From assembly GCA_016932165.1 (NCBI GenBank), contig JAFGDK010000103.1:28068-92067 (forward strand): a DNA stretch of 64,000 nucleotides, read 5' to 3'. Positions within the stretch are counted from its first letter, which is position 1. Each line of letters starts with the position of its first letter. Positions 1,158-34,410 of this stretch are shown in pieces. The notes under the pieces are model-generated. The model had not been told where the DNA came from, ran no database searches, and saw nothing but the letters and a program-made list of their open reading frames with translations. The position numbers were made by a program, and so were the translations under genes. This DNA is from Anaerolineales bacterium (lineage in GTDB: Bacteria > Chloroflexota > Anaerolineae > Anaerolineales > UBA11579).

Positions 1158-1391
1158 CCCCCCAGTGAACTTCTAAAATTTACAGACAGTTTTCAAACTG
1201 TTTGCTGCCAGCTGACTGCTGCCAAAAACACCCTTCTCCCCACAGACAGGCTTGGGGAGAAGGGCTAAGTAAGGAGGGTCAGATTACCTGGTGGAGGGAC
1301 CAGTTCATCTTCTATTCAATTAAGTTCCAGCAGCCAAGACCCAGCACAAACATGCCCAGTCGAGCTGTTGATCAGATTCTGGCTAAAACTC

Positions 1392-2537
1392 CTACTTATC
1401 TACGCGCTTGCGTAAAAAGGTGGGGATATCCAGGTCTTCACGATTGAATGCAGCTGGTTCCAGTTCCAGCGGTTGGCGCACCTGTGTCGGGCGCTGCCCT
1501 TCCATCTGTTTGGGAACTACCATCTGCTGCCCGGCAGGAGCAGCCGCTGTCCGCTGTTGTCTTGGGACAACTCGCCGCGGCATGGCTGCCCGATCAAATC
1601 CGGTGGCGATCACAGTCACGCGGATCTCATCACCCATATCCGGGTCGATGACTGCGCCAAAGATCAGGTTTACATCCGGATGGGCAGTTTCCTTGATGAT
1701 CGCAGCCGCTGTGTTGACCTCAAACAAGGCCAGGTCTGGGCCGCCGGTCACATTGAAGAGAATCCCGCGGGCGCCGTCAATGGTGATATCCAACAGGTTG
1801 CTAGTGATCGCCATTTCGGCTGCCACCCGAGCGCGATCCTCACCTGAACCATGGCCGACAGCCATCAACGCGGCACCGCCCTCAGACATGATCGTCTTCA
1901 CGTCGGCAAAGTCCAGGTTGATCAACCCGGGGATGGTGATCAGTTCGGAAATACCCTGAATGCCCTGGCGTAGCACATCATCCGCCATCAAAAAGGCTTC
2001 GTTCAGGCTGGAACGTTTATCCACGATCTGGAGCAAGCGGTCATTGGGGATCACGATCAGGGTATCTACATGCTCTTTCAGTTTGGCAATCCCAGTCTCA
2101 GCGGTCTGCATGCGGCGCCCCCCCTCAAAGGTGAACGGGCGGGTAACCACACCGATCGTCAGCGCCCCGACTTCCTTGGCAATCTGGGCAACCACGGGGG
2201 CAGCGCCGGTACCGGTGCCTCCGCCAATCCCGGCAGTCACAAAGACCATGTCCGTGCCCTTCATGACTTCATATAATTCCTGGGCAGATTCCTCAGCCGC
2301 CTTACGACCATTTTCAGGGTTGCCGCCTGCGCCTAAGCCGCGGGTCAGCTTATCGCCAATCCTCACCCGGATTTGGGCCTCAGACTGCATCAGCGCCTGA
2401 GCATCTGTATTTATAGCGACAAACTCAACGCCTTGAAGACCCTCACGGATCATTCTTCCAACCGCGTTGCAGCCGCCGCCCCCTACGCCCACAACTTTAA
2501 TGCGGGCAAATGATTCTGCATTGTTCATTGTTTTCAT
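1392..2537 (-). CDS. ftsZ: cell division GTPase FtsZ
   Basis: N-terminus [12 protein letters not shown] and the tubulin signature [10 protein letters not shown]. The acidic/basic C-terminal tail ends DIPTFLRKR. Confidence 0.95.
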
Positions 2538-2622
2538 CGCGTACCTCCAAAAATACTGACTTCCTTACATATACACAATTTTTTATGTCTAATCGGCTAT
2601 TACCGCAAATTATTTTTCTATT

Positions 2623-3858
2623 CTACGGTAAAATCCGTTTTAGCACCTCTTTTAATTTAGCCCAATTTAATGGCCCCTTCATATCCGGCACATACTTCGG
2701 CATAACCACCGCTGAAGGATCGACGGCCTTCATTTGAACTGCATACTGCACCAGACCAACACTGGTAGAAAAAGACGGGGAATGCAGCCGGTCCACCATC
2801 CCGATCAAATTCTCCGGCCGGGCTACCCGGCATGGGAGACCCATCACCTGGCTGGCCAGTTCACGAATACCGGTCAACTGGCTGGATCCGCCGGTCAGCA
2901 CCAGACCGGCTGGCAGCAAACCATCATAGCCCGAACGTTTGATCTCCTGCATCATCAGGGCAAAAATCTCCTCCACGCGTGCCTCAATTATATGGCTGAG
3001 GTCATACCGGCTGACCTCCACAGGTTCCTCCCCGCCAAACGTACGAACCGGGAAGACTTCATCTGGTCTCACTGCGTTGGTCATCGCATGGCCATGGTTA
3101 ATCTTGACTTCCTCTGCCCGTGAAAACGGCAGCCGCAGCCCATGGGCAATATCAGAAGTAATGTGATTGCCTCCCACACCCAATACCATCGTGTGCCAGA
3201 CATCCCCTTCAATATAGATTGCCATGTCTGTGGTGCCACCGCCGATATCACACACCACCACGCCCATCTCTCGTTCAGTATCAGTGAGCACCACCTCCCC
3301 AGAGGCCAGCGGGTTGAGCACAAATCCAGAAACCTGCACGCCGGAGTTCCCCACCACCTGGCGGAGATTATCAACTGTGGAAGCCGCAGCGGTGATAATA
3401 TGTGCTTCTACTTCCATCCGGTAGCCATGCATCCCGATTGGCATCCGAATCCCATCCTGCCCATCTACAGTGAAGCCGCGCTGGATAACCTCAATCACTT
3501 CCCGGTTGTGCGGTATCGCTACCGCTCGGGCAGCGTCCATCGCTCTGAGCACATCCTCCTCATCAATCACCTGGTGATGAACGCCAACCACACCCCGGCT
3601 ATTGATGGAAGAAACATGCGAACCAGCCAGGCTGACCTTGGCGGAGTTAATCTCATAACCTGCGGTGCGTTCCGCCTTCTCGATCGAGAAACCAACTGCT
3701 TTGGTAGCAGCAGCAATATCTACTACCGTTCCCTTGCGAATACCCTGTGAGGGTTCAATCCCTACACCCAGGATTCGCATGCGGCCATCGCCTTCTTCTC
3801 GGGCGACAATCGTGCAAACTTTTGTGGTACCGATATCAATTCCTACATGGATGCTCAT
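2623..3858 (-). CDS. ftsA: cell division protein FtsA (actin-like ATPase)
   Basis: MSIHVGIDIGTTKVCTIV N-terminus. DIGGGTTD phosphate-2 motif. It sits immediately upstream of ftsZ. Confidence 0.9.
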   Translation of the reverse strand: MSIHVGIDIGTTKVCTIVAREEGDGRMRILGVGIEPSQGIRKGTVVDIAAATKAVGFSIEKAERTAGYEINSAKVSLAGSHVSSINSRGVVGVHHQVIDEEDVLRAMDAARAVAIPHNREVIEVIQRGFTVDGQDGIRMPIGMHGYRMEVEAHIITAAASTVDNLRQVVGNSGVQVSGFVLNPLASGEVVLTDTEREMGVVVCDIGGGTTDMAIYIEGDVWHTMVLGVGGNHITSDIAHGLRLPFSRAEEVKINHGHAMTNAVRPDEVFPVRTFGGEEPVEVSRYDLSHIIEARVEEIFALMMQEIKRSGYDGLLPAGLVLTGGSSQLTGIRELASQVMGLPCRVARPENLIGMVDRLHSPSFSTSVGLVQYAVQMKAVDPSAVVMPKYVPDMKGPLNWAKLKEVLKRILP

Positions 3859-3865
3859 AACTCAC

Positions 3866-4909
3866 CTAAGGTTCCATCCGGTAATAAGGTGCGTGAATGT
3901 ACTCAACGCTGATCAAGACTGGTTTGTGCTGCTTCTCTGTAAACATAGCAGCAATTTCTTCATAAATTTTCACTCGAAGCGTTGACTGATCCAACTGCTT
4001 GCCGAAAAACACCATCCAGTGATAGTTGGGGTCTTCCCAACCGAAGCCGTGATCCTGATCGTAAACAAGTTGACTTTCAGGGGGCAAGGAACGTGCCAAT
4101 GTGAGGATATTGGAGACCAATTCAGGGTCTAGAAGCTGTTCCCTGCCTTTGTCTTTATCCAAATCCTCCGGATTGATCTCCTCCGGCTCTTCGTCCGCAC
4201 TGCTGGCAATCAACAACTGGCGTGGAATTGGCGGATAACCATTTGCCTTCACATGCACCAGATTCTCAGAAGTGCCATAGGCCGGGAACAGTCGCCCTTC
4301 GAGATCCACCCAGGAAGGCTGGGGAAGCCCATCCTGATCCCAGATCAGGACCGGCACGCGTTCCATTGCCTTAATCACCACAGCGCCATTCATCTTGACC
4401 GAAACTTTTGCAGAGTCCAGGGCGGGAACGGCTTTGGGCAGCGATTCGACCAGCGATTCAGGAGAAATCAAGAATACTGGTTTATTAAGAATTCCAGATT
4501 TTGCCAGGATCAATTCCCGATCCACTCGTTCTAACCCATCTACCTGGATTCGATCCCCGGTTGCAGAATAAGCCGGGGAGTTTATCATCCAAAATAAGGC
4601 AAAGCTTAATAATAAAACCACTACCAGTGAGAATCCTCGCCCTCCCATTCTGGGTAGCGTCACTACTGGCAGCCGGATTTCAGCATTTCCAGCCCGGATA
4701 GGCAGATCAACCCGGCGGCGGCCGGTTGCCTGGGCTTTTCTACGCCTGTTTTCCTGCTCGTGTGCGACGGATACCATCCCCGTGCGCGAGACCATCGGGG
4801 GTATCGGACGTCCGGTATTCTTACGCGAGGCGCGAGACACCGACGCAGTGTTCTTACGCAGCCCGCGTCTGGCTCTCACAACTTCCGAACGTCTTTGCTC
4901 AGCGGTCAT
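3866..4909 (-). CDS. ftsQ: cell division protein FtsQ/DivIB with a long Arg-rich cytoplasmic N-tail
   Basis: Single TM (LVVVLLLSFALFWMI) followed by a POTRA-like region (DRIQVDGLERVDRELI). Position between ddl and ftsA. The first ~100 aa are highly basic and R-rich. Confidence 0.75.
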   Translation of the reverse strand: MTAEQRRSEVVRARRGLRKNTASVSRASRKNTGRPIPPMVSRTGMVSVAHEQENRRRKAQATGRRRVDLPIRAGNAEIRLPVVTLPRMGGRGFSLVVVLLLSFALFWMINSPAYSATGDRIQVDGLERVDRELILAKSGILNKPVFLISPESLVESLPKAVPALDSAKVSVKMNGAVVIKAMERVPVLIWDQDGLPQPSWVDLEGRLFPAYGTSENLVHVKANGYPPIPRQLLIASSADEEPEEINPEDLDKDKGREQLLDPELVSNILTLARSLPPESQLVYDQDHGFGWEDPNYHWMVFFGKQLDQSTLRVKIYEEIAAMFTEKQHKPVLISVEYIHAPYYRMEP

Positions 4910-9151: not shown

Positions 9152-10261
9152 TCAGCCTCTTCCTATCTCATTCTTAGCAGATGTTGCCAATTCCTGCAGG
9201 AATTGAGCAATCTTATTTGCAGCATCAGGGACTACCAAAGAGTGCATCACGGCCTGCATCTGCTGCCTTTTTTCCGGTTTTTCGATCATTAGCTCCTGCA
9301 CAAGAGGAACCAATTTTGCCGATAAATCCTCATCCCGCAGCATTACAGCTGCCCCGCGTTTGGCCAGATACTCCGCATTTACCTTCTGGTACCGCCAGGC
9401 ATGCGGGTAAGGCACCAAAATGGCTGGCACGCCAAATGTGGGCAGTTCTCCCAGTGTAGATGCCCCGGCGCGAGAGATCACCAGGTCTGCTGCAGAAAAG
9501 GCTGCCCTCATCTGCTCATGCAGGTAAGGGAACGGGCGGTAATTCTTCGCCAGGGCTTCTGGCAGACTGGCATGTGCGGCCTCCACCTCCGGCCAGGTAT
9601 GTGTTCCGGTCAGGTGAATGATCTGAATTTCTGTCAGCAGCGCCTCGAGGCTGGCCGCGACCGCCTGGTTGATCGAGCGCGCCCCTAAACTACCGCCGGT
9701 TACCATTAGTGTCGGCTTTTCAGGGGAAAGATCAAAGACCGCCAGGGCTGTTTCTCGCGGCATTGGCTGCATGCTCGGGCGGGTGGGATACCCCACCACC
9801 TCGATGCGTTTTTCCGGCGGGAAATAAGCCCGGGATTCCTCCGCAGGAACCGCAATCAGGTCAGCCCGGCGAGAGAGGGTTCGCAGGGCCAGGGCTGGCT
9901 CAATATCCGGCAGGCACAGCACCATCGGCACCTTTCGTCCCGCAAATCCGGTGGGAATAGCCACATATCCGCCGGTAAAGAAAAGCACATCCGGTTTAAA
10001 CTCATCGATAATCTTCCGGGCGGCAAAATATCCGCGGGTAAGCTGCCATAAGCCAGAGATCGCCTTCAAGCCGACCCCATGCAGTCCGGCAGCGGGGATG
10101 GCTTTAAAGGGGATATCGGCCCGGGCTACCAGGTCGGTTTCCATGCCTTTTTCTCCCCCCACCCACAATATTTCTTCCGGGCTATCCCCGAGGGCTTGCA
10201 GAACGGCCAGCGCGGGATAGATCCCGCCCCCGCTCGCCCCTGCGGACACCAACAGGCGCAT
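9152..10261 (-). CDS. murG: UDP-GlcNAc:lipid I GlcNAc transferase MurG
   Basis: LLVSAGASGGGIYPALAVLQAL N-terminal G-loop and a GT28 C-terminal domain. The ORF is open to 10312. The Met at 10261 is preceded by AGGAAGGA and is the likeliest start; it overlaps the ftsW 3' end by ~80 nt. Confidence 0.85.
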   Translation of the reverse strand: MRLLVSAGASGGGIYPALAVLQALGDSPEEILWVGGEKGMETDLVARADIPFKAIPAAGLHGVGLKAISGLWQLTRGYFAARKIIDEFKPDVLFFTGGYVAIPTGFAGRKVPMVLCLPDIEPALALRTLSRRADLIAVPAEESRAYFPPEKRIEVVGYPTRPSMQPMPRETALAVFDLSPEKPTLMVTGGSLGARSINQAVAASLEALLTEIQIIHLTGTHTWPEVEAAHASLPEALAKNYRPFPYLHEQMRAAFSAADLVISRAGASTLGELPTFGVPAILVPYPHAWRYQKVNAEYLAKRGAAVMLRDEDLSAKLVPLVQELMIEKPEKRQQMQAVMHSLVVPDAANKIAQFLQELATSAKNEIGRG

Positions 10262-11420
10262 ATTCCTTCCTCTCATCTGTTTTTCTACTTGCTCTTGACT
10301 GGCGGGAGACATTCATCAAGATCCCGATCGAACTCAACGAAAACAGCATGCTCGTTCCACCAAGACTGACAAACGGCAACGCATTCCCGGCGAATGGCAC
10401 CAGACCAACCATCATCCCCATGTTGATCAATGCCTCCATCATCAGCCAGAAAGTGATCCCGATGGCCAGCAGCTGGCCGAGCATATCCGGCGCTTCTCTG
10501 GCAATCTTGAACCCCCGAAGGGTCAGGATCACATATAAGCCGATCATCACCGTTGTACCCAACAGCCCGGTCTCTTCTGCTGTGACGGCAAAAATACTAT
10601 CTGTGGGGGGAACCGGCAGTCCGTGAGTTTTGGTCTCTGATTTATCAATCCCCATCCCAAATAACCCGCCGCGGGCAAAAGCCTCGATCGAGCGCTGCAC
10701 ATGTGGATGGGCCTCACGCGGATCGCGCAGCCCCTGTAAATAATCACTAATCCGGTCTTGAGCTGTAGGCTGCACCTGGATTACCACCAAGCCAACCAGA
10801 AAAGTCACCGCCAACAGGATGAAAATCTGTTTTAAGTCGCCGCCGGCAACAAAGAACATGATCCCGCCGAGGATCACCAGGGTGAAAGCTGCGCTCACAT
10901 CCGGCTGGACGATGATCAACCCGGCCAGGAAGCCAATGATGATCGCCAGCGGGATAAGTCCAAATCCAACCTTATTCAGCTGGTGCCGCTTGTTGTATAA
11001 CCAGACGCTCAGATAGATGATCAAGACCAGCTTGGCCATCTCGGAAGGCATTCCCGAGCCCTCGTACAGGGTGCGCACCGCATTGAAACGCACGTTTTGC
11101 AGGATCTGCACCAAAATCAACAATCCAACTGTTGCCCCCATCAACAATAATGCCAGCCGGCGAAAATTGTGATAATCAAAATAGGCAGCCACAAATGCGG
11201 CAGCCACACCGACCAGAGTGAAGATCAACTGGCGGGTGAACATCTTGGTGTGGGAGCCTTCATACTCATAATAGGACATCTCCCAACTGGCTGAAAACAC
11301 CATCACGAGGCCGAATAGAACAAGAAAAACGATCGCGATCAACAGCACGGGATCTATCCCTAATTGGATTCCGCCTACCCCGCGCTTGCGGACAGGTTTT
11401 GCCTGATATGTCGTTGTCAT
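10182..11420 (-). CDS. ftsW: SEDS-family peptidoglycan glycosyltransferase FtsW
   Basis: ~10 TM segments. Conserved SEDS motifs (DFVFAVTAEE-like DSIFAVTAEETGL, PFVSLGGTS). Position between murD and murG. Basic C-terminal tail. Confidence 0.85.
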   Translation of the reverse strand: MTTTYQAKPVRKRGVGGIQLGIDPVLLIAIVFLVLFGLVMVFSASWEMSYYEYEGSHTKMFTRQLIFTLVGVAAAFVAAYFDYHNFRRLALLLMGATVGLLILVQILQNVRFNAVRTLYEGSGMPSEMAKLVLIIYLSVWLYNKRHQLNKVGFGLIPLAIIIGFLAGLIIVQPDVSAAFTLVILGGIMFFVAGGDLKQIFILLAVTFLVGLVVIQVQPTAQDRISDYLQGLRDPREAHPHVQRSIEAFARGGLFGMGIDKSETKTHGLPVPPTDSIFAVTAEETGLLGTTVMIGLYVILTLRGFKIAREAPDMLGQLLAIGITFWLMMEALINMGMMVGLVPFAGNALPFVSLGGTSMLFSLSSIGILMNVSRQSRASRKTDERKEYAPVGVRRGERGRDLSRAGRSASPRG

Positions 11421-12790
11421 TAGTCTCGCTCCTTCACCGGAAGATCGTTCACAAGTTGTTTAAAATGTCTGCCGCGTGCTTCATAATCAACATAATCATC
11501 AAAGCTGGTGCCGCCAGGAGCCAATAAAACCACATCGCCAGTTTTGGCGGCTTCAACTGCCAGCTCAACAGCCTGCTCCAACCCTTGACACACGGTCGAA
11601 TTGGGATAAGCCGCTGAAATGATCCCGGCCGCCTCGCCAAATGCAATCACCGCCCTGGCGCGCTTGGCTGCCTGGCGGGCAAATTCATCCCAGGGGAGTG
11701 CCTTATCCCGCCCGCCGGCCAGCACAACCAATCGCTCGCTGAAAGCCTGCATGGCAGTCACGGCCATCTCCGGGCTGGTGGCCTTAGAATCGTTGTACCA
11801 CTGCACGCCATTGATCTCACGAACAAACTCCAGCCGGTGTTCTACGCCGCCAAATCCCTGGATACCAGCCCGAATCACCTGCGCAGGCAGATCGAGCGCC
11901 AGGCTGAGGGCGCAGGCGGCCAGCACGTTTAACAGGTTATGGTCACCTCTCAATGAGATTTCATCTAGCGGTATCACCGCCTGTTGCTCTGCTCCCCGGC
12001 GCACCCAGATATGGCCCTCATGCACCAGGCTCCCAGATTGTCCATCCGGCAGTGCCCGGCCAAAGGCAAGCACTTCTCCATGCGCTTCTCCTGCCAATTG
12101 CCAGGCTCTTGTATCCTCAATTCCCAACACCAGGGTATTTGATTTCGTCTGGTGCGAGAAGATGTTCTTTTTCGCCTGGATGTAGGCCGCCATTGTGCCG
12201 TGGCGATCAAGGTGATTAGGGGAAAGATTCAAGATAGCGGCCACCTGAGGAGAAGATCGCATGATTTCCAGCTGAAAACTGGATAACTCCACCACCACCA
12301 GATCTTCAGGGCTAATTTGATCCAATTGACGGATCAGCGGGGAGCCGATATTCCCGCCGACAAATGCCTTGCGATACAAGCCGGCCTTTGCCGCCTGATT
12401 GGCGATCCGCCCCATCAGTGTGGTTGTCGTTGTCTTTCCGGCTGACCCGGTAATTCCCACCACCAAGCAAGGTGCCGCCTCAATAAAGATCTGCGAATCA
12501 TTAGAGAGCGGAATACCGCGTTTTTGGGCTTCCAATACCATCGGGATGGTCAGGGGCACACCCCCGGAGGGACATACCAGATCAGCGCCATCCAGCAGGG
12601 TTAGCGGATGCCCTCCGGTAACCCATTCCACAGACAGCCCTGCCAATTCCTCCCGGGCATTGATCAATTCTTCAGCAGGCTGCGCATCGGTTAATACCAC
12701 CTGGGCGCCTCTATTCACCAGGTAGCGGGTCAGCGCTAATCCCTGACGGGCAGCCCCAATCACAACCACACGCTTTCCGTTCCAACTCAT
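11420..12790 (-). CDS. murD: UDP-N-acetylmuramoylalanine--D-glutamate ligase MurD
   Basis: VVVIGAARQGLALTRYL Rossmann N-terminus and GITGSAGKTTTT P-loop. The ORF is open to 12841, but the Met at 12790 forms an ATGA overlap with the mraY stop. Confidence 0.9.
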   Translation of the reverse strand: MSWNGKRVVVIGAARQGLALTRYLVNRGAQVVLTDAQPAEELINAREELAGLSVEWVTGGHPLTLLDGADLVCPSGGVPLTIPMVLEAQKRGIPLSNDSQIFIEAAPCLVVGITGSAGKTTTTTLMGRIANQAAKAGLYRKAFVGGNIGSPLIRQLDQISPEDLVVVELSSFQLEIMRSSPQVAAILNLSPNHLDRHGTMAAYIQAKKNIFSHQTKSNTLVLGIEDTRAWQLAGEAHGEVLAFGRALPDGQSGSLVHEGHIWVRRGAEQQAVIPLDEISLRGDHNLLNVLAACALSLALDLPAQVIRAGIQGFGGVEHRLEFVREINGVQWYNDSKATSPEMAVTAMQAFSERLVVLAGGRDKALPWDEFARQAAKRARAVIAFGEAAGIISAAYPNSTVCQGLEQAVELAVEAAKTGDVVLLAPGGTSFDDYVDYEARGRHFKQLVNDLPVKERD

Positions 12791-27606: not shown

Positions 27607-28044
27607 ATGGAATTTTTTAACCGGTTGATACACGCACTCACCCAAAGCCACCCCATCCACCCGATGATCGTGCATTTCCCAATTGCCCTCAGCGGAGCAG
27701 CTCTGCTGTTCATTCTAATCGCCTGGGTAAGAAAAGACCGCAACTTTGAAATGATGGCCTTCGCCAACCTGGTGCTGACAGTGTTTGGCACTCTCGCCGC
27801 TGGACTCACCGGATTGTACGACAACAACCGGAATTACCTCGGAGAGGCCCCTAATGCCAACCTGAAAATTGTGCTGGCAATCCTGATGCTGGCGGTTTCA
27901 GCCCTTACCGCATTTTTGCGCATGCGCAGTCCTGAATTGCTCTTTTCAAAAGGGAAACTTTTATATCTTGCCGGTTATCTGATCAGTTTTTTGCTTGCCA
28001 TCACACTCGCCTTTTTAGGCGGCGTAATTCTATATGGCTTTTAG
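27607..28044 (+). CDS. DUF2231-family membrane protein
   Basis: HPIHPMIVHFPIAL motif and 4 TM segments. Family is commonly adjacent to cytochrome c genes. Confidence 0.6.
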   Translation: MEFFNRLIHALTQSHPIHPMIVHFPIALSGAALLFILIAWVRKDRNFEMMAFANLVLTVFGTLAAGLTGLYDNNRNYLGEAPNANLKIVLAILMLAVSALTAFLRMRSPELLFSKGKLLYLAGYLISFLLAITLAFLGGVILYGF

Positions 28045-28053
28045 GAGACAACC

Positions 28054-28566
28054 ATGAACTTTAAACATCGAATCATCACCCTTACACTGATTAGCCTGTT
28101 GGCCGTCTTAGTAGCCGGGTGCGGTGGGAAAACTGCTCCTGCCGCGAACCTGCCTGAAGAGAACCTGGCCTCTGATCCAGCGGAGATGCCCGTAGAAGAA
28201 GGCAATGTCAACCAGCCTGAAATCGAACCGGGGCCTGAACCAACGGAAGAACCAGCGCCCGCTGAAGAACAGCCCACTGTTGCGAGCGAAGTCAGCTTCG
28301 CGGCAGATGTGCTGCCCATTCTGGACAGCCGCTGCCTGAACTGCCATGGTGGCGAAAGAGTGGAAGGGGATTTTGTGCTCAGCACCTATGCCGAGCTGAT
28401 GGACGGCGGAGAAAGCGGCCCGGCAGTGATTCCCGGTGATGCTGATTCCAGCTACCTGGCTGAACTGATTTTGGCACAAGAAATGCCCAAACGCGGCCCT
28501 AAACTAACCCCGGTACAGACCCAAACGATCATTGACTGGATTAACCAGGGAGCCCCGAATAACTGA
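28054..28566 (+). CDS. lipoprotein with a single-heme PSCyt1-type (Planctomycete-type) cytochrome c domain
   Basis: Lipobox LVAGC. ADVLPILDSRCLNCHGGERVEGDFVL...GGESGPAVIPGDADSSYL...MP...LT..Q...I.DWI.QGA matches the PSCyt1 domain pattern with one CxxCH. Confidence 0.65.
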   Translation: MNFKHRIITLTLISLLAVLVAGCGGKTAPAANLPEENLASDPAEMPVEEGNVNQPEIEPGPEPTEEPAPAEEQPTVASEVSFAADVLPILDSRCLNCHGGERVEGDFVLSTYAELMDGGESGPAVIPGDADSSYLAELILAQEMPKRGPKLTPVQTQTIIDWINQGAPNN

Positions 28567-28576
28567 TCTAAAAAAA

Positions 28577-28599
28577 TCCCCTGACGGAATGTCAGGGGA
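28577..28599 (-). terminator. hairpin terminator (TCCCCTGAC-ggaat-GTCAGGGGA) followed on the minus strand by a T7 run
   Basis: Perfect 9-bp stem between convergent genes. The plus-strand A-run at 28571-28576 is a U-tract for the minus-strand transcript. Confidence 0.65.
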
Positions 28600-28619
28600 T
28601 GATCGTGACTCCCAAAAAG

Positions 28620-29876
28620 CTACACCGGCTTTAGCACCGCTACCGCCACCCCATGGATGCGGATGCAGTCTTCTTCTGCAAGCATCTGCTTGGGGAAAGC
28701 GACCTCGAAATCCTTGAAGGATGGATCTCTGCTTTCCGCCTTTATGATGATATCATCCTGCTGTTCGATATAACGTTTCAGGGTGGCTGGCAGTTTGTTG
28801 TCCACGCCTTCTACCGGGATCAATTTCGTTAATCCTTCGCTGATCTCGCCCTCCAGGCTTTGCGAGGTGAGGTCAAATACCAGCGCGGCAATATCCATAT
28901 GCAATGCAAAATTTTGCGCCCGGCAGACCACCAGATCACCATCATCGATCCCGGCAATATTCATGCTGGTCCCTCTGACTCGCAGGGCAAAATGCTCAGC
29001 GGATTGGGCCAGGTTGATCCGGCTTTCGCCCCGCTTGAGAGAGAGGACATCATATTCTTCCTCACCGATCCGCACCCGGGTGACTTCCACAAATTCATCC
29101 GGTTCCAGCCCGGGATGCACCGGATATTGAGCAGAGGGGACATAATCCAATAACGCCGAAAGTCCGGCAGGAATCTCCTCATAGACAGCAAAGAGTTCAA
29201 AAAAATTTTCAATCTTGATGGGAAATTCTGGTTTATGTTGTGAGGGCGATAGATCGGAGATCAGGTCTTCAGCAAAATCCAGTGATGTTGAGACCGTCAC
29301 GCCAGTCCCTGGAATCATATATAAATGAGGTAATTTATCATTCTCAATGGCGTATTCAAGCGCTTTGACCATAATCCTGATCTGTGACCGGTACCATTGG
29401 ATCTGATCCTTATTGGTCATGATGCTGGCGGCCAGGCTTTTAAAATGATTGATGCATTCCTGCCAGCGGTCGATGCCAACGTTATGCCTGCCGTGCGGCT
29501 GCAGCCACGATACAACTCCAAGCATCCAATTGACAACCGCAAAATAATGCACCTTCCCCCTGCCAATATCATGCATAGAAAAGTAGAACAGATCAGCCGC
29601 CTCGGAGATGTAGCCCAATTCCAATGCAATCTGGCCGCAGCGGCGCAGCGCCACCCCGCCCTCGAATTTATCCATCAATATCCGCTTGGATCTGATCCGC
29701 TCAATCTCCCGCCAAATCCGATCGGTATCATTGGATTTCTTTGCTTCTTCCAGGACCAGCAAAACTTGCTTGAGGTGTTCACTCAATCGGATTTTGTCGG
29801 TCACTAGGTCTGGGCTCCACCAGCGGGCTTCTGCAAATCCCACCCATTGATTGGCTATTTCCAGTTGGGTTGGCAT
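28620..29876 (-). CDS. protein with a C-terminal LexA/UmuD-like S24 serine autopeptidase domain and an uncharacterised ~280-aa N-terminal domain
   Basis: C-terminal LRVRGTSMNIAGIDDGDLVVC matches the S24 motif V-G-D/T-S-M-x-x-x-G-I-x-D-G-D-L-V-V. Downstream, DIAALVFD...TKL supplies the candidate catalytic Lys, and IHGVAVAVLKP matches the LexA terminal strand. I could not recognise an HTH in the N-terminal part. Confidence 0.6.
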   Translation of the reverse strand: MPTQLEIANQWVGFAEARWWSPDLVTDKIRLSEHLKQVLLVLEEAKKSNDTDRIWREIERIRSKRILMDKFEGGVALRRCGQIALELGYISEAADLFYFSMHDIGRGKVHYFAVVNWMLGVVSWLQPHGRHNVGIDRWQECINHFKSLAASIMTNKDQIQWYRSQIRIMVKALEYAIENDKLPHLYMIPGTGVTVSTSLDFAEDLISDLSPSQHKPEFPIKIENFFELFAVYEEIPAGLSALLDYVPSAQYPVHPGLEPDEFVEVTRVRIGEEEYDVLSLKRGESRINLAQSAEHFALRVRGTSMNIAGIDDGDLVVCRAQNFALHMDIAALVFDLTSQSLEGEISEGLTKLIPVEGVDNKLPATLKRYIEQQDDIIIKAESRDPSFKDFEVAFPKQMLAEEDCIRIHGVAVAVLKPV

Positions 29877-29877
29877 T

Positions 29878-31152
29878 TCATTCCTTCCCTTTCGTATCTT
29901 TCCTGTTTGAATCCTTCTTTGGATCCTTCTTCTCTTCTCCCCCAGTCATCTCACCGCTGTACAAACCAGACCAGGCATCTAGGATCTGTGCAGTACGCAG
30001 TTGAATCAGGGTCTCCAAATCCTCCGCATCGTCAATCCGCAGATCTTCCAACGCATCAATGATCCCTTTGGTCATCTCTGCCTGGGAAATTGAACGCACC
30101 GCATCCTGACGGGCGTATTCGTAAGCTTTGCCTTCCGCTTCAAGCACCATAATCTCTCCCTGCTTGGTTTTTTTCCAGCGGTTGAACCAGAAATCTTCAA
30201 TTTCTTGATCGTCGAATTTAAACACCGCGAATTCAACACTAAGCAACCGGGCCCCAATCTCCTTCAATTGCTCTCGCACTTCTGGTCCGTGCAACTCTTT
30301 GCGTAAAGCCTCCCGGGATGAAAGGGTGGCATCATGCGGGGTGAGAATTTGATCCACTGGCAAGCGATTGATATACTTTTTAATCGCCTCTTCGATAATC
30401 GTCTGGATCATCTCTGCCATCGTCAGATAAGATGTCTCAGATACAAGGCGGTTGGTTGCATATTTCCTGGCGGCCTCAACATAAGATTCGCCGCTGGCGG
30501 TATTCCCCCGGTCCTTGATCCAATCCGGCTCTCTTTCTCTCAGTTTAAATCTGAAGCGAACTCGGGGAACGATCACAGTGATCCCATCCATAGTAAGTGC
30601 CTTGATCTCATCTATCTCGTGGTAGTGATCATCAAGACTGAAGGTTTCCTGGATGAATTGATATCTGGTGATCGGATACTCGCCCTCCCCATAGACCTGG
30701 GATGTCCCCTCCAACTTTTCAAGAATAACAAGGTTTTGTGGAGAAACCTTCACATGCCCAGGACCGCCCATTTTGTCTATCAGGTTAACTTCACCGGCCT
30801 TGATCGCTTTTTTTCCGCGGTTGATCTTGATCGTTGGCTGAAGCGGGAAGGCCAATGTACAGTAAATGAAATATTCCAACGCCTCCCCCACCTTATCCAG
30901 CTCATACAGATCATTTAAATAACGGGCAGAACCGAACACAGAAACGCCCAAAGCGAGCAATACCACTGCCAGGTATCTTTCCAGCCTGAACCATGGCAAC
31001 CGCTGCCCAATGGAAAAGAATGAAATTCCAATCGCGATGAACACGGCAACAAATACTAAAATCCGCACAAAATAAGCCCCCATCCGGTCAGAAAAGAAGA
31101 ATTCAGGAATTGCGGTGGCCGCATTCTTAATAATAACTTTTACCCGGTTCAT
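29878..31152 (-). CDS. two-TM SPFH/band-7 family membrane protein (HflK/C-flotillin-like), paralogue 2
   Basis: Two N-terminal TM helices. An SPFH-like core (GGPGHVKV...ALTMDGITVIVPRVRFRFKL). C-terminal VLEAEGKAYEYARQDAVRSISQAEMTKGII resembles the HflK/prohibitin AEGEAEA coiled-coil region. A 1-nt gap separates it from the downstream gene. Confidence 0.55.
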   Translation of the reverse strand: MNRVKVIIKNAATAIPEFFFSDRMGAYFVRILVFVAVFIAIGISFFSIGQRLPWFRLERYLAVVLLALGVSVFGSARYLNDLYELDKVGEALEYFIYCTLAFPLQPTIKINRGKKAIKAGEVNLIDKMGGPGHVKVSPQNLVILEKLEGTSQVYGEGEYPITRYQFIQETFSLDDHYHEIDEIKALTMDGITVIVPRVRFRFKLREREPDWIKDRGNTASGESYVEAARKYATNRLVSETSYLTMAEMIQTIIEEAIKKYINRLPVDQILTPHDATLSSREALRKELHGPEVREQLKEIGARLLSVEFAVFKFDDQEIEDFWFNRWKKTKQGEIMVLEAEGKAYEYARQDAVRSISQAEMTKGIIDALEDLRIDDAEDLETLIQLRTAQILDAWSGLYSGEMTGGEEKKDPKKDSNRKDTKGKE

Positions 31153-32852
31153 ATGCTATCCCCTTGCTGCTTCTTCTCATCTGAAGAAAGTTTGAACCAA
31201 GCCCTAATATCTCCCAGCATCTTGACCATATTGGAGATTTCTTTATTGTTGGATCCTACTGTTGCCGCTTCCAGTGCCTGGAAGATCCGTAATATAAAGG
31301 CTGTTTTGGCTTTGTCGCTGGTAGTCAGCACATCACGCAGGGCATAGACAGTATCTTGCTGCACTCTCACTTTCGCCCGGCTGCGGATCAGGGCTGCCTC
31401 TTCCTGAAAACCGATCTCGGTCTTTGTAGCTTCTGAATTCCAGCGCGCTTTCAGGTTTTCAACAATCTGCGCCTTCACCTCTTGGTTATGCGGTTCAAGC
31501 GGACCAAAGCTGACGGATGTCACTGAAATTTCCCGTTTTCGCAGAGGACGAGGGAATTCGAGCCTGATCGGATTCTCAGTCAGCTCATGGAGATTGGAAA
31601 TCCGATCCCCCACCTTGACTTCCCCACCCCCAACCGGGACAACCAGTCTATACCCCAAAAAGCCGGATAGTTTTACTTCTTTTATAAAATCACGGCGAAG
31701 GTTTTCAATCGGGATTCGCTTCTTCTCTTCTAGCAAATCTATCGAGGAGATCCTGGTTTGGGCATCAACTGCCTCGTCATCTTCTAAAGGTTGTTCCATG
31801 TCCAAATAATCGGGGGGCGGCAGGAAAAGATCATCGAATGGATACAGGGCGATCATGTTGCTGAACTCTTCTATCGCCACCTGGATTGGCAGTTCGTACC
31901 ACATTACCATCTCACCGGTATCGGGCCGGCGCGGTTGATTCTTATAGCACTCCTGAACACGTTCCTGGTTGAACAATCCCGGGCTGTGGTAATCATCCAA
32001 CTCAAGGAGGGTGATCTCATCCAGATTTCCCGCTCTTAATTTCCGTACCACATTGATAACTTCGTTAAGCTCTTCATCTGGTAAACCACCCTGAACAATA
32101 TCGATGACCATATCCCCGCGCTCATCCAGCTCAAGGACACGCAAATCGTCCTTATCATCACCTTTTCCTGAGAGGGTCAGGTAAATGATCTCAGGCGGCG
32201 CACTGATAGAAAACTGTACCGAGATACTGGTATCAATCTCAATCCCATCTCGGGTCAGAAATGTCAGCGTGTCAGAAGTGCGGATCTGCTTACGCAGGTC
32301 CATGACCGCAGCAACCTTTTTCTTTGGCTGCCAGGTAAAGACCACCCCTGGACCATGCACCTTCGACCCAATCACCACCGCATTGTTGGAATACACCAGC
32401 GCCACACCAGGTCCTACTCTTTCTTTTTCACCCATGTGAGAGATGATCTTGCCGTCCTTCACAAAAATCAAAGGTCCGCGGTAGCCAATCATAAAGCCGC
32501 AAAAATTCAGGAACGCCTCCCAACGGTCTTTCCAGGAAGTTACCGGGAGCAGGAATTGAGAATTGAATAAATTGGCAACCAAAAGAGCCAGCATAAAAAT
32601 CCCTACTGCAGTCCACCATACCAGCCGGTATTCCCGGAAGACCTCCAGCTGAAGCAGCGAAGCGGGATCCCGAATACTGCGCAGACTTTTTACCGGATCA
32701 GCAAAAAATATCTTGGAGTTGATCATCCGGATCAGATTGTAGCGTGACAGATAGATGACCTCTTTGCCAAATAGAATCAAGGCAGCGATGATCCCCCCAA
32801 TCAGCCTGAGAATGAAATTCTTGATCCGCCGTATTCGTAGCCTTTTTTTCAT
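31149..32852 (-). CDS. two-TM SPFH/band-7 family membrane protein, paralogue 1 (long acidic C-terminal extension)
   Basis: Two N-terminal TM helices, then VGPGVALV...GPGVVFTWQPKKKVAAVMDLRKQIRTSDTLTFLTRDGIEIDTSISVQFSI. This matches the SPFH core pattern PGlhf.iP.....vd.r.q.....q...TkD.v.v.vd.vv.yrv. It overlaps the next gene by 4 nt. Confidence 0.5.
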   Translation of the reverse strand: MKKRLRIRRIKNFILRLIGGIIAALILFGKEVIYLSRYNLIRMINSKIFFADPVKSLRSIRDPASLLQLEVFREYRLVWWTAVGIFMLALLVANLFNSQFLLPVTSWKDRWEAFLNFCGFMIGYRGPLIFVKDGKIISHMGEKERVGPGVALVYSNNAVVIGSKVHGPGVVFTWQPKKKVAAVMDLRKQIRTSDTLTFLTRDGIEIDTSISVQFSISAPPEIIYLTLSGKGDDKDDLRVLELDERGDMVIDIVQGGLPDEELNEVINVVRKLRAGNLDEITLLELDDYHSPGLFNQERVQECYKNQPRRPDTGEMVMWYELPIQVAIEEFSNMIALYPFDDLFLPPPDYLDMEQPLEDDEAVDAQTRISSIDLLEEKKRIPIENLRRDFIKEVKLSGFLGYRLVVPVGGGEVKVGDRISNLHELTENPIRLEFPRPLRKREISVTSVSFGPLEPHNQEVKAQIVENLKARWNSEATKTEIGFQEEAALIRSRAKVRVQQDTVYALRDVLTTSDKAKTAFILRIFQALEAATVGSNNKEISNMVKMLGDIRAWFKLSSDEKKQQGDSI

Positions 32853-32915
32853 CTAAATAGTACTATCACTAGAGGCGCGCCAGACAGGTTGGTATTTCAT
32901 ACCGAATCAGAATAC

Positions 32916-32952
32916 CTGTTCTCATTTTAGGAAGATTTACCCCTTACGTCAA
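32916..32952 (-). promoter_or_regulatory. near-consensus sigma70 promoter TTGACG-N17-TAAAAT for the SPFH/S24 operon, followed by a 5'-UTR hairpin
   Basis: The minus strand reads TTGATTGACGtaaggggtaaatcttccTAAAATgag. -35 at 32947-32952 and -10 at 32924-32929. The inverted repeat CAGGTATT...AATACC..CCTG at 32880-32915 lies between the promoter and the start codon. Confidence 0.45.
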
Positions 32953-32985: not shown

Positions 32986-34410
32986 TTACGAGACAAGCTT
33001 GAGCAGCGCCTGCCAGATGCGCACCATCGCCCAGGTGTCTAATTTGCAGTACGCCAGAAGGTGCTGCCGCATCTGATTATATGCAACTGAGTCCATTTCC
33101 CCAGACATCATCTCTGCCCAGGCCAGCATAGCAGCGTCCCCGCTGGAGATCACCAGCTCTTCATAGGACAGGTCTGGCGCCAGCACCGGAAGCACATTTT
33201 TAATCGAAGCGCTGCCATGGAAATCGGGGTGGAGATAATATCCTTTTGAAAAAACTTCCATCAGATCAAAAATCCGATCATTTGCCGAGTGCAGGCCTTC
33301 GGCATACTGGGGATGCAAAACCGCCATCTCCCGATTGCGTCCGGCCTCAAACGATCGGTTCCACACGATCACAGAGCCAGTAGGGCTTATCTTGTCCAGC
33401 AAATCAGCCGCCAGCCGCAGAGACGGGTCTTCTGGCTCCGTGGCCAGATACTCGTAATGAACTGGGGCAGACCCCAGCGCTTCAAATAGATGCAGCGAGT
33501 ATTGGAACACGATATGCTGGTGAGGTGCGTAGCCATCATACCAAGGTACAGCCGGGTTATAGGTCTCGTAGTCCAGAAAGGATAGCGGGAAAACCATCTG
33601 ATCCAGCGCCGCGATCAACTGATCATGGTCAATTACCGGCATTCCGGCCTTGACCACATCCGCGTGGCGCGCCTGGATTACGGTCAGATTAAAATCGGAG
33701 GGGATATCGACAATCGCGGTGATCCCGGCATCTCGCAAGGTTTTAGCCTTGCTCCCAATCCGAGGAAGATTATAGATGGAGTGGTTTGGCAGGTTTGGGT
33801 GACAGAGTTGCGGGCAAGGGCATTCTTTGGGTTTTAAACAGGTCTCAATCCCATCGGGAGAATCCGCCTTCGCTGTCTGCCAGGCCGCCTCCCGCCCTGC
33901 CTTAAGTTCCTCGCATAGTTCGATGATTGGGCCACTGACCTTCTCAATCACAAAAAGCGCGTCAAGTTCTACTTCTCCCTCCCGCCGGTACTGCTTGTTT
34001 AAGTGCAGCAAATAGGTATCCCGCACTTTGAAATTGGCTAATGCCACCAATCGCTGAAAAGCCGCATCCAGCAAGTGCTCCTTTCTGATCGAACTGCCGG
34101 ACTTGATCTCATAGATATCCCATGCATGCTCATCAGGATAATATACTGCCGCATCCAACCGGGCAAAAAAATGCCGGTCACCTAATTCGATCTCAAAATG
34201 CACCTGTGCATCGGGGTAGTCCTGACTGATTTTATTGCGCAAATAAACCTGGGCGCAATCCTGCACAGCCCGGCCCTGGGCCCTTAGATGCTGGTCAAAG
34301 GCTGAGGGTTCAACTTCTTCAAGCCGGTCGTGTTTTTCCGCCCACAGGTGCATGGGCGAGTCTAAATACAGCAGATAATCGGTTTTGGTGAGAATATTAG
34401 CCTTGTTCAA
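32986..34410 (-). CDS. DUF2779-family protein (PD-(D/E)xK nuclease-like N-domain plus a C-terminal exonuclease-like domain)
   Basis: N-terminus LTKTDYLLYLDSPMHLWAEKHDRLEEVEPSAFDQHLRAQGRAV matches the DUF2779 pattern SKSdfl.yl.CPk.LWL.kh.pe......e....f..G.evg. Length 474 aa. Confidence 0.55.
   Translation of the reverse strand: MNKANILTKTDYLLYLDSPMHLWAEKHDRLEEVEPSAFDQHLRAQGRAVQDCAQVYLRNKISQDYPDAQVHFEIELGDRHFFARLDAAVYYPDEHAWDIYEIKSGSSIRKEHLLDAAFQRLVALANFKVRDTYLLHLNKQYRREGEVELDALFVIEKVSGPIIELCEELKAGREAAWQTAKADSPDGIETCLKPKECPCPQLCHPNLPNHSIYNLPRIGSKAKTLRDAGITAIVDIPSDFNLTVIQARHADVVKAGMPVIDHDQLIAALDQMVFPLSFLDYETYNPAVPWYDGYAPHQHIVFQYSLHLFEALGSAPVHYEYLATEPEDPSLRLAADLLDKISPTGSVIVWNRSFEAGRNREMAVLHPQYAEGLHSANDRIFDLMEVFSKGYYLHPDFHGSASIKNVLPVLAPDLSYEELVISSGDAAMLAWAEMMSGEMDSVAYNQMRQHLLAYCKLDTWAMVRIWQALLKLVS

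Follow-up and report, generated by a model that had tools for sequence, protein, structure and literature searches.

A TPR-like domain fused to a LexA-type S24 peptidase domain and encoded behind paired SPFH genes in Chloroflexota

Introduction

What might a LexA-type autopeptidase domain control when the protein that carries it has no recognizable DNA-binding part? S24 domains are known as the switch that inactivates repressors binding DNA (LexA, CI, and relatives) and UmuD. The question is raised by a gene in the Anaerolineales DNA analyzed here, a stretch of 64,000 nucleotides that we refer to in its entirety as the window. An earlier note, made without database searches, had described the product as a C-terminal S24 domain preceded by an unrecognized 280-aa N-terminal domain without an apparent helix-turn-helix (HTH), that is, as an autopeptidase with a cargo of unknown function.

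Results

The open reading frame was confirmed. It starts with ATG, ahead of which lies the SD-like GGGAAGGA, and its product is listed by NCBI as the hypothetical protein JW757_11700 of an Anaerolineales MAG. We refer to it here as the TPR-S24 protein. The gene, the parts of its product and the residues discussed below are as follows, with verified coordinates for the codons of A237-G238, S304, and K367.

28620..29876, minus strand: TPR-S24 fusion gene, 418 aa
29322..29876, minus strand: residues 1 to 185, TPR-like domain of eight helices
29211..29321, minus strand: residues 186 to 222, variable Pro-rich disordered linker (pLDDT < 50)
28623..29210, minus strand: residues 223 to 418, S24 module (cleavage-site region, extra hairpin, and catalytic core)
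29163..29168, minus strand: A237-G238 codons, predicted scissile bond in EEIPAG, paired with LexA A84-G85 by global hhalign
28965..28967, minus strand: S304 codon, nucleophile (GTSM), aligned to LexA S119 by hhalign, conserved in 65/65
28776..28778, minus strand: K367 codon, general base (ATLKRY), aligned to LexA K156 by hhalign, conserved in 65/65

The proposed 280-aa N-terminal domain thus held only in part, as this region really comprises a folded helical domain (residues 1 to 185), a linker (residues 186 to 222) that differs in both sequence and length among relatives in alignments A1 and A3, and residues 223 to 285, which are part of the S24 module and contain the cleavage-site region and the extra beta-hairpin. 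No hydrophobic segment was found in the protein, which is accordingly predicted to be soluble. A weak match to Pfam DUF3545 (16.5 bits against a cutoff of 25) was taken as noise, and no second S24 or LexA gene was found elsewhere in the 64-kb window.

In its C-terminal half, the protein carries a true Peptidase_S24 (LexA/UmuD/CI) domain with a strongly conserved dyad; autocleavage itself is inferred. Pfam Peptidase_S24 matched the protein with 33.3 bits (cutoff, 23.3; E value, 4.4e-8), the match being limited to residues 290 to 333 because of insertions, while relatives of the protein reached 45 to 64 bits. The family profile matched the C-terminal domains of LexA in the PDB with an E value of 1.8e-11, and hhalign against E. 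coli LexA gave a probability of 98.8%. The module satisfies the criterion of an S24 beta-fold, and the closest matches of its core are LexA C-terminal domains. The lexA model TIGR00498 was not satisfied (25 bits against a cutoff of 111), and only the S24 part was covered. The conservation counts come from 65 diverged family representatives, at most 50% identical to one another, all of which retain both S304 and K367; the context of the latter, ATLKRY, corresponds to VTVKRL in LexA. The S24 assignment of the earlier note therefore held, with a Pfam score above the curated threshold and with the dyad and Ala-Gly site conserved, and so did its choice of the GTSM serine and of the terminal strand IHGVAVAVLKP, both of which are present and conserved. 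Its candidate for the catalytic lysine, in a TKL motif, failed: this residue (K351) lies within a 25-aa insertion ahead of the catalytic lysine that is restricted to the window protein's own subclade and not shared by most relatives, whereas the lysine that never varies is K367.

An Ala-Gly or Cys-Gly-like bond 20 to 40 aa upstream of the serine had also been anticipated. A candidate for such a bond could be located, A237-G238 in EEIPAG, but the expected distance was not met, since insertions place it 66 residues upstream of S304. The motif resembles VAAG of LexA, and A237 is kept in 63 and G238 in 61 of the 65 representatives, with one relative (P0110) carrying LPVIGEIPAGTPL at this position. 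The pairing of IPAG with VAAG rests on the global hhalign alignment alone, with low per-column confidence, and was not reproduced by local alignment; a local hhalign run with low mact set the cleavage-site region against the N-terminal domain of LexA, which we judged to be spurious. Because only the global alignment pairs the two motifs, we regard A237-G238 as the probable cleavage site, inferred from sequence alone and not proven. Nor does the AF2 model show the Ala-Gly region docked in the active site, owing to pLDDT values below 50 for residues 193 to 263.

Fold searches identified residues 1 to 185 as a stack of helix-turn-helix hairpin repeats, i.e., the TPR fold. No HTH match was found in the N-terminal part with Pfam or NCBIfam models or with sensitive sequence and fold searches, and the absence of an HTH claimed earlier thus held. 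Two findings had been named beforehand as refuting the original interpretation, namely, detection of an HTH and lack of any alignment to Peptidase_S24; both were checked, and neither was met. The N-terminal domain is thus, by its fold, a TPR-type helical-repeat domain without a DNA-binding domain, and its protein-binding function is inferred. No Pfam TPR model matched the window protein. Among its relatives, P0014 matched TPR_12 (39.6 bits against 30.1) and P0095 matched TPR_2 (30.8 bits against 27), while most others remained below threshold, and neither Pfam nor NCBIfam holds a model dedicated to this domain.

A search for related loci with alignment A1 returned five full-length relatives together with generic LexA-like S24 genes. 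In an exhaustive profile search, the TPR-like domain family grew to at least 448 cluster representatives, the named members of which all belong to Chloroflexota. Roughly half of the family is fused to S24, the remainder being tandem duplicates or stand-alone domains; among the top 155 representatives, 68 were N-terminal domain-S24 fusions, 41 were tandem, and 42 were single. The cargo, to which no function had been assigned before, is now identified as a TPR-type domain of a large family that is, as described below, genetically tied to an SPFH pair, a context that the earlier note had not noticed.

Upstream of the TPR-S24 gene, the operon contains the following features.

31149..32852, minus strand: SPFH1, 567 aa, two N-terminal TM helices (residues 10 to 28 and 77 to 95) and an SPFH/Band_7 domain
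29878..31152, minus strand: SPFH2, paralogous membrane SPFH protein of 424 aa, with a 4-nt overlap with SPFH1
32924..32952, minus strand: promoter-like TTGACG-17-TAAAAT, 10/12 matches in a consensus scan

Downstream, it is followed by a single feature.

28576..28600, minus strand: intrinsic-terminator-like hairpin, 10-bp stem with six GC pairs and a T7 tail, 20 nt past the stop

The promoter-like site sits in the 133-nt gap between a DUF2779 gene and SPFH1; it is a consensus match only and no proof of function. Taken together, the 4-nt overlap, a 1-nt gap, the SD-like sequence, the promoter-like site and the terminator show, as signals at the DNA level, that three genes form an operon, SPFH1-SPFH2-(TPR-S24), which ends with the TPR-S24 gene.

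SPFH1 and SPFH2 are distant paralogues. SPFH1 exceeded the Pfam Band_7 cutoff of 23.6 bits with a score of 27.5, and SPFH2 fell marginally below the same cutoff (23.5 bits), with its orthologues at 46 to 55 bits. The AF2 model of SPFH2 (pLDDT 78) includes a long C-terminal coiled-coil/cage-wall helix and was matched by Foldseek to erlin1/2, HflK/C, stomatin, prohibitin, QmcA, and flotillin, with E values of 6e-10 to 1e-6 (6e-10 to 5e-8 for erlin, HflK/C, stomatin, and PHB). Each of the two proteins has two hydrophobic segments, and the N terminus of SPFH1 (MKKRLRIRRIK) is positively charged. Hydrophobicity and the positive-inside rule, on which the prediction rests entirely, suggest that the N terminus is inside and that the SPFH domain and the long coiled-coil helix are cytoplasmic. 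The predicted topology is supported by SPFH1 orthologues, which occupy the equivalent place in L001, L003, L011-L014, L051, L053, L054, and L055: in three of these loci (L011, L012, and L054), an LVIVD beta-propeller of ∼1000 aa is inserted exactly between TM1 and TM2, in the loop connecting them. Beyond generic Band_7 matches of the SPFH genes, no specific family model or curated name was found for the proteins of the module, and none of the three operon proteins matched NfeD or S49 in Pfam or NCBIfam.

In all non-redundant loci for which upstream DNA was available, with all three architectures included, the TPR-like gene lies directly behind two paralogous membrane SPFH/Band-7 genes (14/14). 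These loci include relatives at 26 to 31% identity in differing neighborhoods, and relatives without S24, with a tandem or lone TPR-like domain, occupy the same operon position. It is thus the TPR-like domain and not the S24 domain that invariably accompanies the SPFH pair in these loci. No extra conserved accessory genes were found near the module, the flanks being unrelated housekeeping genes (psuG/psuK-like, glycosyltransferase, and DUF362).

Discussion

How the S24 domain might act in this setting can be proposed only from the genomic link, with no binding, co-folding, or cleavage data, and we consider the following adaptor/autocleavage model as likely to be wrong as right. By analogy to HflK/C, prohibitin 1/2, erlin 1/2, and flotillin 1/2, SPFH1 and SPFH2 would probably alternate with each other in a hetero-oligomeric ring or cage at the inner membrane face. 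The TPR domain would dock onto this assembly, making the TPR-S24 protein a cytoplasmic adaptor, and the S24 domain, if it dimerizes as LexA, CI, and UmuD do, which is assumed here, would render the adaptor bivalent. Tandem-TPR relatives would reach equal valency within one chain. However, stand-alone single-TPR relatives such as that of L053 exist, and bivalency is therefore not obligatory. Self-cleavage between A237 and G238 would part the TPR domain (∼27 kDa) from the dimerizer (∼20 kDa), and the resulting collapse of avidity would irreversibly switch the SPFH complex or release the TPR part. The logic of LexA and CI, in which a DNA-binding domain is cut from a dimerization domain, would in this way have been moved to a membrane scaffold. 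The stimulus may come from the SPFH assembly when it changes conformation, perhaps driven by the extracytoplasmic loop that holds the LVIVD propeller in some orthologues, or it may be RecA*. Pairing of SPFH proteins with proteases has precedent in PH1511 with the Ser-Lys protease PH1510, in NfeD operons, and in HflKC-FtsH (PMC3795559, PMC2636767, and PDB entries). A bolder reading, which we regard as no more than possible, is that LexA-type autoproteolysis in Chloroflexota serves, independently of DNA binding, as the output switch of an SPFH1/SPFH2 membrane sensor cage and in some variants frees a TIR NADase. In this reading, S24 self-cleavage of the TPR adaptor would be set off by a signal sensed at the membrane or across it, by cages of which some bear the extracytoplasmic LVIVD propeller.

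Among the alternatives, the S24 domain might act as an SPFH-specific protease in trans, with the TPR domain recruiting SPFH1 and/or SPFH2 and the Ser-Lys site cutting them, e.g., in their C-terminal regions. In function, the protein would then correspond to the STOPP/NfeD protease PH1510, which cuts the stomatin PH1511, and its internal Ala-Gly would serve for self-inactivation only. SPFH operons classically bear a partner protease, and PH1510-N likewise has a Ser-Lys dyad (PMC3795559 and PMC2636767); moreover, the dyad is invariant in the family (65/65), and the operon lacks an NfeD-like gene. As UmuD illustrates, trans cleavage between dimer partners is possible for S24 sites. Yet, to our knowledge, no characterized S24 member cleaves beyond itself or its dimer partner, and the internal Ala-Gly motif is nearly as conserved as the dyad, which is what a self-substrate should show. 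Since S24 is missing from about half of the family while the linkage to SPFH is kept, SPFH proteolysis is excluded as the core function. We therefore consider a trans-acting protease unlikely. Less likely still is an S24 domain that is only a catalytically silent dimerization module. S24 domains are known to serve in dimerization, and the tandem-TPR relatives suggest that valency counts, but conservation of Ser and Lys in 65/65 and of Ala-Gly in 61 to 63 of the 65 representatives at ≤50% identity is hard to explain without catalysis. Even less probable is that the protein regulates transcription in the ordinary manner of LexA or a phage repressor, through a DNA-binding domain that has diverged beyond recognition, a reading favored by the NCBI name "LexA family protein" on one fragmentary relative and opposed by the TPR fold and the HTH-negative searches described above.

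Two further readings were considered. In an SOS-coupled membrane response, RecA*-stimulated cleavage would let DNA damage remodel the SPFH assembly. In its favor are the S24 core, nearest to LexA C-terminal domains, the presence of recA-recX 2 to 3 kb from the module in L053, and a Cheo-box-like GAACaggtATTC 69 nt upstream of SPFH1. However, recA was found near the module only in this single instance and on the opposite strand, and the Cheo-like site (GAAC-N4-GTTC-like) has one mismatch, with ∼0.04 such sites expected by chance in the 133-nt gap, and has no counterpart ahead of SPFH1 at 10 further loci. We thus rejected this lone, unconserved site as an SOS box, as it fits chance, and we doubt the SOS reading as a whole; RecA-independent S24 regulators, e.g., IrvR, are known (PMC7101444). 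The overall interpretation of the earlier note is supported, but the RecA* dependence that it merely implied has no test data behind it. The module might alternatively be an anti-phage or conflict system, in which infection or damage to the envelope is detected by the SPFH pair and an effector or adaptor is freed by S24 autocleavage, the window locus being a minimal, effector-less form. This reading draws on L055/L056, where a gene for a KAP-family NTPase overlaps SPFH1 by 4 nt and a second paralogue has a TIR domain inserted after the TPR domain and ahead of the Ala-Gly site; in P0122, TIR lies at the linker position. The TIR domain matches the PADLOC models for short-pAgo TIR, SAVED-TIR, and ThsB, and the NTPase matches PDC-S20, QatA, and PifA. 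Against it, neither the three window proteins nor the SPFH proteins of other loci matched any PADLOC-DB v2 model, so that the window operon was rejected as a known defense system, and TIR was seen in only 1 of ∼25 members scanned. Furthermore, synteny of the window locus extends to related Anaerolineales, its neighbors are housekeeping genes (e.g., glpD-like, glmS-like, thioesterase, and ABC-F protein), and no integrase or mobile-element signature was found among the annotated genes around the module in the window or in L001/L002. We consider the reading of the module as a defense or conflict system improbable.

We found no description of the SPFH1-SPFH2-(TPR-S24) module in the literature searched or in profile libraries; in particular, no paper in that literature couples SPFH with S24/LexA, or peptidase S24 with TPR or SPFH. 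If the adaptor/autocleavage model is true, the LexA paradigm would reach beyond gene regulation to a complex of membrane proteins, through an S24 switch that controls a TPR domain. If the bolder reading is true, the module would represent a new class of SPFH-gated proteolytic signaling or defense and the first S24 switch with a protein-interaction cargo. The function of most prokaryotic SPFH subfamilies is unknown, and SPFH biology would gain a tractable three-gene system with an easily assayed cleavage readout, for which SPFH1 with the LVIVD propeller and the TIR/KAP-NTPase locus provide testable hypotheses on input and output.

In comparison with known systems, the TPR-S24 protein shares no homology beyond the generic TPR fold with TPR-CHAT/Csx29 or with the RRNPP proteins PlcR and Rap, and it has no HTH, CHAT domain, or peptide-pheromone locus. 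Its closest likeness is to LexA, lambda CI, and UmuD (MEROPS S24), with which it shares the beta-fold, the Ser in GxSM and Lys in (T/V)xKR, a probable upstream cleavage motif (I/V)xAG, and the GVAVxVxK strand, as well as, by inference, the logic of a functional N-terminal part followed, after a linker, by a self-cleaving, dimerizing C-terminal domain. However, this N-terminal part is TPR rather than the winged or lambda-type HTH of LexA and CI, and it is not the short tail of UmuD. Compared to all three, it has two extra insertions, one of ∼18 to 30 aa that separates the predicted cleavage site from the Ser strand and, in the subclade, one of 25 aa before the Lys, and the context is a membrane SPFH operon, with no conserved operator found, rather than autoregulated SOS or prophage immunity.

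The SPFH-NfeD/STOPP systems (P. horikoshii PH1511/PH1510 and E. coli QmcA-YbbJ) resemble the module in that an SPFH scaffold is co-transcribed with a partner that has a Ser-Lys peptidase domain, this partner being conserved throughout the family. Here, in contrast, the peptidase is of the S24 type (clan SF) instead of the ClpP-like S49 fold, the TPR-S24 protein is soluble and without the NfeD OB-fold or a membrane anchor, and there are two paralogous SPFH genes, with the TPR domain constant and the peptidase optional. Paired SPFH paralogues and an association with proteolysis are likewise features of HflK/C-FtsH and of prohibitin 1/2-m-AAA, and the SPFH2 model fits the protomer of HflK/C, PHB, and erlin, including the long wall helix. 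While HflK/C faces the periplasm, SPFH1 and SPFH2, each with two predicted TM helices, have an SPFH domain predicted to be cytoplasmic, and, unlike in both HflK/C-FtsH and prohibitin-m-AAA, the putative client of the assembly is a small, presumably self-cleaving protein rather than an AAA+ protease.

Operon structure and flanking genes

The open reading frame at 28620..29876 (-) was confirmed to be real, with a 418-aa product and an ATG start preceded by GGGAAGGA. An identical protein from an Anaerolineales MAG is annotated in NCBI as a hypothetical protein. Within the operon SPFH1-SPFH2-TPR-S24, the gene comes third.

Features of the operon in the window
32952..32924, minus strand: promoter-like site upstream of SPFH1
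31149..32852, minus strand: SPFH1, with a 4-nt overlap with SPFH2
29878..31152, minus strand: SPFH2, with a 1-nt gap between its stop codon and the TPR-S24 ORF
28620..29876, minus strand: TPR-S24
28600..28576, minus strand: strong terminator hairpin after TPR-S24

AGAACaggtATTCT (32908..32922, -), which directly follows a -10-like hexamer and lies 69 nt before the SPFH1 start, matches the Gram-positive/Chloroflexi-type SOS (Cheo) box with one mismatch. Ten other loci lacked such a site ahead of SPFH1, and the match is therefore probably fortuitous. Immediately upstream of the operon lies a gene (32986..34410, -) for a 474-aa DUF2779 protein (131 bits); its N-terminal part weakly resembles Cas4/RecB (PADLOC Cas4, E = 0.0035), and its C-terminal part is RNase_H-like. 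The gene keeps this position in the homologous loci L001 and L002 but not in distant loci, and is thus probably an unrelated neighbor. A gene pair convergent on the S24 gene (27607..28566, +), encoding a DUF2231 membrane protein and a lipoprotein-like PSCyt1 (Planctomycete cytochrome c) protein, is also found downstream in L001, L004, L005, and L009; this conservation is within-clade synteny, the pair being outside the module in distant relatives. The 64-kb window yielded neither tRNA nor tmRNA genes with ARAGORN and no Rfam match at or above the gathering score; its GC skew was negative in 29 of 32 two-kb bins.

Domain anatomy of TPR-S24

The C-terminal part of TPR-S24 is an S24 domain, as the earlier note had claimed. 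Residues 290 to 333 matched Pfam Peptidase_S24 with 33.3 bits (gathering score, 23.3), and a profile built from the eight nearest homologues matched LexA C-terminal domains in the PDB (E = 1.8e-11). Comparison of a 50-sequence family alignment with E. coli LexA (sequence identical to 7b5g_A) by hhalign gave 98.8% probability, pairing GTS304M with GMS119M, ATLK367R with VTVK156R, and the terminal strand IHGVAVAVLKP with IEGLAVGVIRN; in a global alignment, EEIPA237-G238 was paired with LexA GRVAA84-G85. Conservation was counted over 65 cluster representatives (≤50% identity) that carry S24: S304, K367, G302, and M305 were each conserved in 65/65, A237 in 63, and G238 in 61. Since both the Ser-Lys dyad and the Ala-Gly motif are nearly invariant, cleavage is likely to be functional, by inference from conservation alone. 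The lysine of a TKL motif, previously proposed as catalytic, is K351, which lies within a 25-residue insertion restricted to the window's own subclade and was rejected.

The 280 residues preceding this domain had been described as one unrecognized domain without a helix-turn-helix (HTH), which held only in part. Residues 1 to 185 do form a domain of eight predicted helices (pLDDT, 80 to 95), for which Foldseek matched a consensus TPR and the CHIP TPR. Residues 186 to 222 are a Pro-rich variable linker predicted with low confidence, and residues 223 to 285 already belong to the S24 module, contributing the putative cleavage-site region and an extra hairpin. The absence of an HTH was upheld, none being detected by any sequence or fold method applied.

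An exhaustive HMM search with the N-terminal domain alone recovered 448 cluster representatives at E ≤ 1e-3 (284 at ≤ 1e-10), and the TPR-like domain is therefore a genuine domain family, one for which neither Pfam nor NCBIfam has a model. Some relatives pass the Pfam TPR_12 or TPR_2 thresholds. In the best 155 of these representatives, 68 combine TPR with S24, 41 carry two TPR-like domains in tandem without S24 (about 330 aa), and 42 have only one TPR-like domain, in many cases with a length of about 170 aa. All organism-named members are from Chloroflexota, with Anaerolineales predominating.

Conserved linkage to two SPFH genes

An SPFH2 orthologue lies directly upstream of the TPR-domain gene, on the same strand, in 14/14 nonredundant loci with upstream DNA (the window, L001, L003, L004, L005, L011, L012, L013, L014, L051, L053, L054, L055/56, and L057), and an SPFH1 orthologue precedes it wherever the contig extends far enough. 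The linkage persists at 26 to 31% identity, in differing neighborhoods (rpoC in L003; psuG/psuK-like in L011, L012, and L014; recA/rny in L053), and in the S24-less tandem, stand-alone, and 415-aa architectures. What stays constant is therefore the SPFH1-SPFH2-TPR unit, to which S24 is often added at the C terminus.

Further neighbors were observed at single loci. In L013, from Anaerolineaceae, the gene just ahead of SPFH1, in the same orientation (1186-3045, +), encodes a 619-aa TrkA_N + RyR protein. In the tandem-TPR locus L051, a DUF3891 gene (4006-4689, +) follows the TPR gene after 15 nt, with a large double-AAA ATPase gene convergent to it. In L053, recA and recX (10234-12144, -) lie 2 to 3 kb downstream of the stand-alone-TPR module on the opposite strand, a single occurrence.

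SPFH1 and SPFH2 are distant paralogues with Band_7 scores of 27.5 and 23.5 bits (the latter marginal), compared with 46 to 55 bits for orthologues in other loci. The AF2 model of SPFH2 (pLDDT, 78) matched erlin1/2, HflK/C, stomatin, prohibitin, QmcA, and flotillin protomers (E = 6e-10 to 1e-6), including their long wall helix. Each protein has two N-terminal hydrophobic segments, and the SPFH1 N terminus is predicted to be inside the cell because the sequence begins MKKRLRIRRIK. In three loci (L011:1955-6595, L012:2050-6606, and L054:2017-6594), SPFH1 reaches 1,518 to 1,546 aa and carries about 1,000 residues of LVIVD beta-propeller repeats (Pfam, 169 to 211 bits) exactly between TM1 and TM2, where the window SPFH1 has a 48-aa loop. 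Inferred from sequence alone, the TM1-TM2 segment could be an extracytoplasmic loop or sensor, with the SPFH domains cytoplasmic, and the LVIVD repeats may represent such a sensor domain. TPR-S24 has neither a signal peptide nor a hydrophobic segment, so that cytoplasmic SPFH domains might be within its reach, although no binding data exist.

A putative adaptor switch and its alternatives

Every SPFH pair of known structure assembles into an alternating ring or cage. Several SPFH assemblies enclose or regulate a protease: FtsH for HflK/C, m-AAA for PHB, and NfeD for stomatin. A Ser-Lys dyad is also found in the NfeD protease PH1510 (PMC3795559, PMC2636767). We propose that the TPR domain would dock on a cytoplasmic SPFH1/2 assembly as an adaptor dimerized by the S24 domain, by analogy with LexA, CI, and UmuD; tandem-TPR relatives would reach the same bivalency within one chain. 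Self-cleavage between A237 and G238 would subsequently separate the TPR domain from its dimerizer, acting as an irreversible switch whose stimulus is unidentified. Taken as a whole, this reading rests on inferred function, and we consider it as likely to fail as to hold.

NfeD-like cleavage of the SPFH proteins in trans appears unlikely, because about half of the family lacks S24 yet keeps the SPFH linkage. A role in defense or conflict is suggested by a variant locus on two JGI metagenome contigs (L055:3-7022 and L056:2199-3713; Ga0105091_10003224 and Ga0209077_1004087), in which a KAP-family P-loop NTPase gene overlaps SPFH1 and is followed by SPFH2, TPR-S24, and a further paralogue of 504 aa (P0122) with the architecture TPR-TIR-S24. 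Its TIR domain (TIR_2, 84 bits) lies between the TPR domain and a putative LPVIGEIPAG cleavage motif and matches the PADLOC models pAgo-TIR, SAVED-TIR, and ThsB-like; the NTPase matches PDC-S20, QatA, and PifA. However, the window's proteins have no PADLOC match and its locus is syntenic in a housekeeping setting, and we doubt this explanation.

Coupling of cleavage to RecA* is also improbable, the sole hints being the nonconserved Cheo-like site and the one recA neighbor. Least plausible are a cryptic repressor, which the TPR fold contradicts, and an S24 domain serving as a silent dimerizer, which is at odds with the dyad and Ala-Gly conservation. The adaptor switch remains our preferred reading.

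Comparison with known systems

Databases label the family proteins "hypothetical," except for a single fragment named "LexA family protein," and the full-text literature searched contained no paper linking SPFH with S24/LexA or S24 with TPR. TPR-S24 meets the sequence, fold, and dyad criteria of peptidase S24 membership but lacks the DNA-binding domain that defines LexA-family repressors. Although its logic recalls that of SPFH-NfeD operons, the operon is not one of them, since NfeD is absent and the peptidase belongs to a different clan. The domain anatomy and the SPFH linkage are solid and unexpected; what is new is an S24 module, a putative autoproteolytic switch by inference only, that carries a non-DNA-binding TPR cargo and is encoded in an SPFH operon of a new type.
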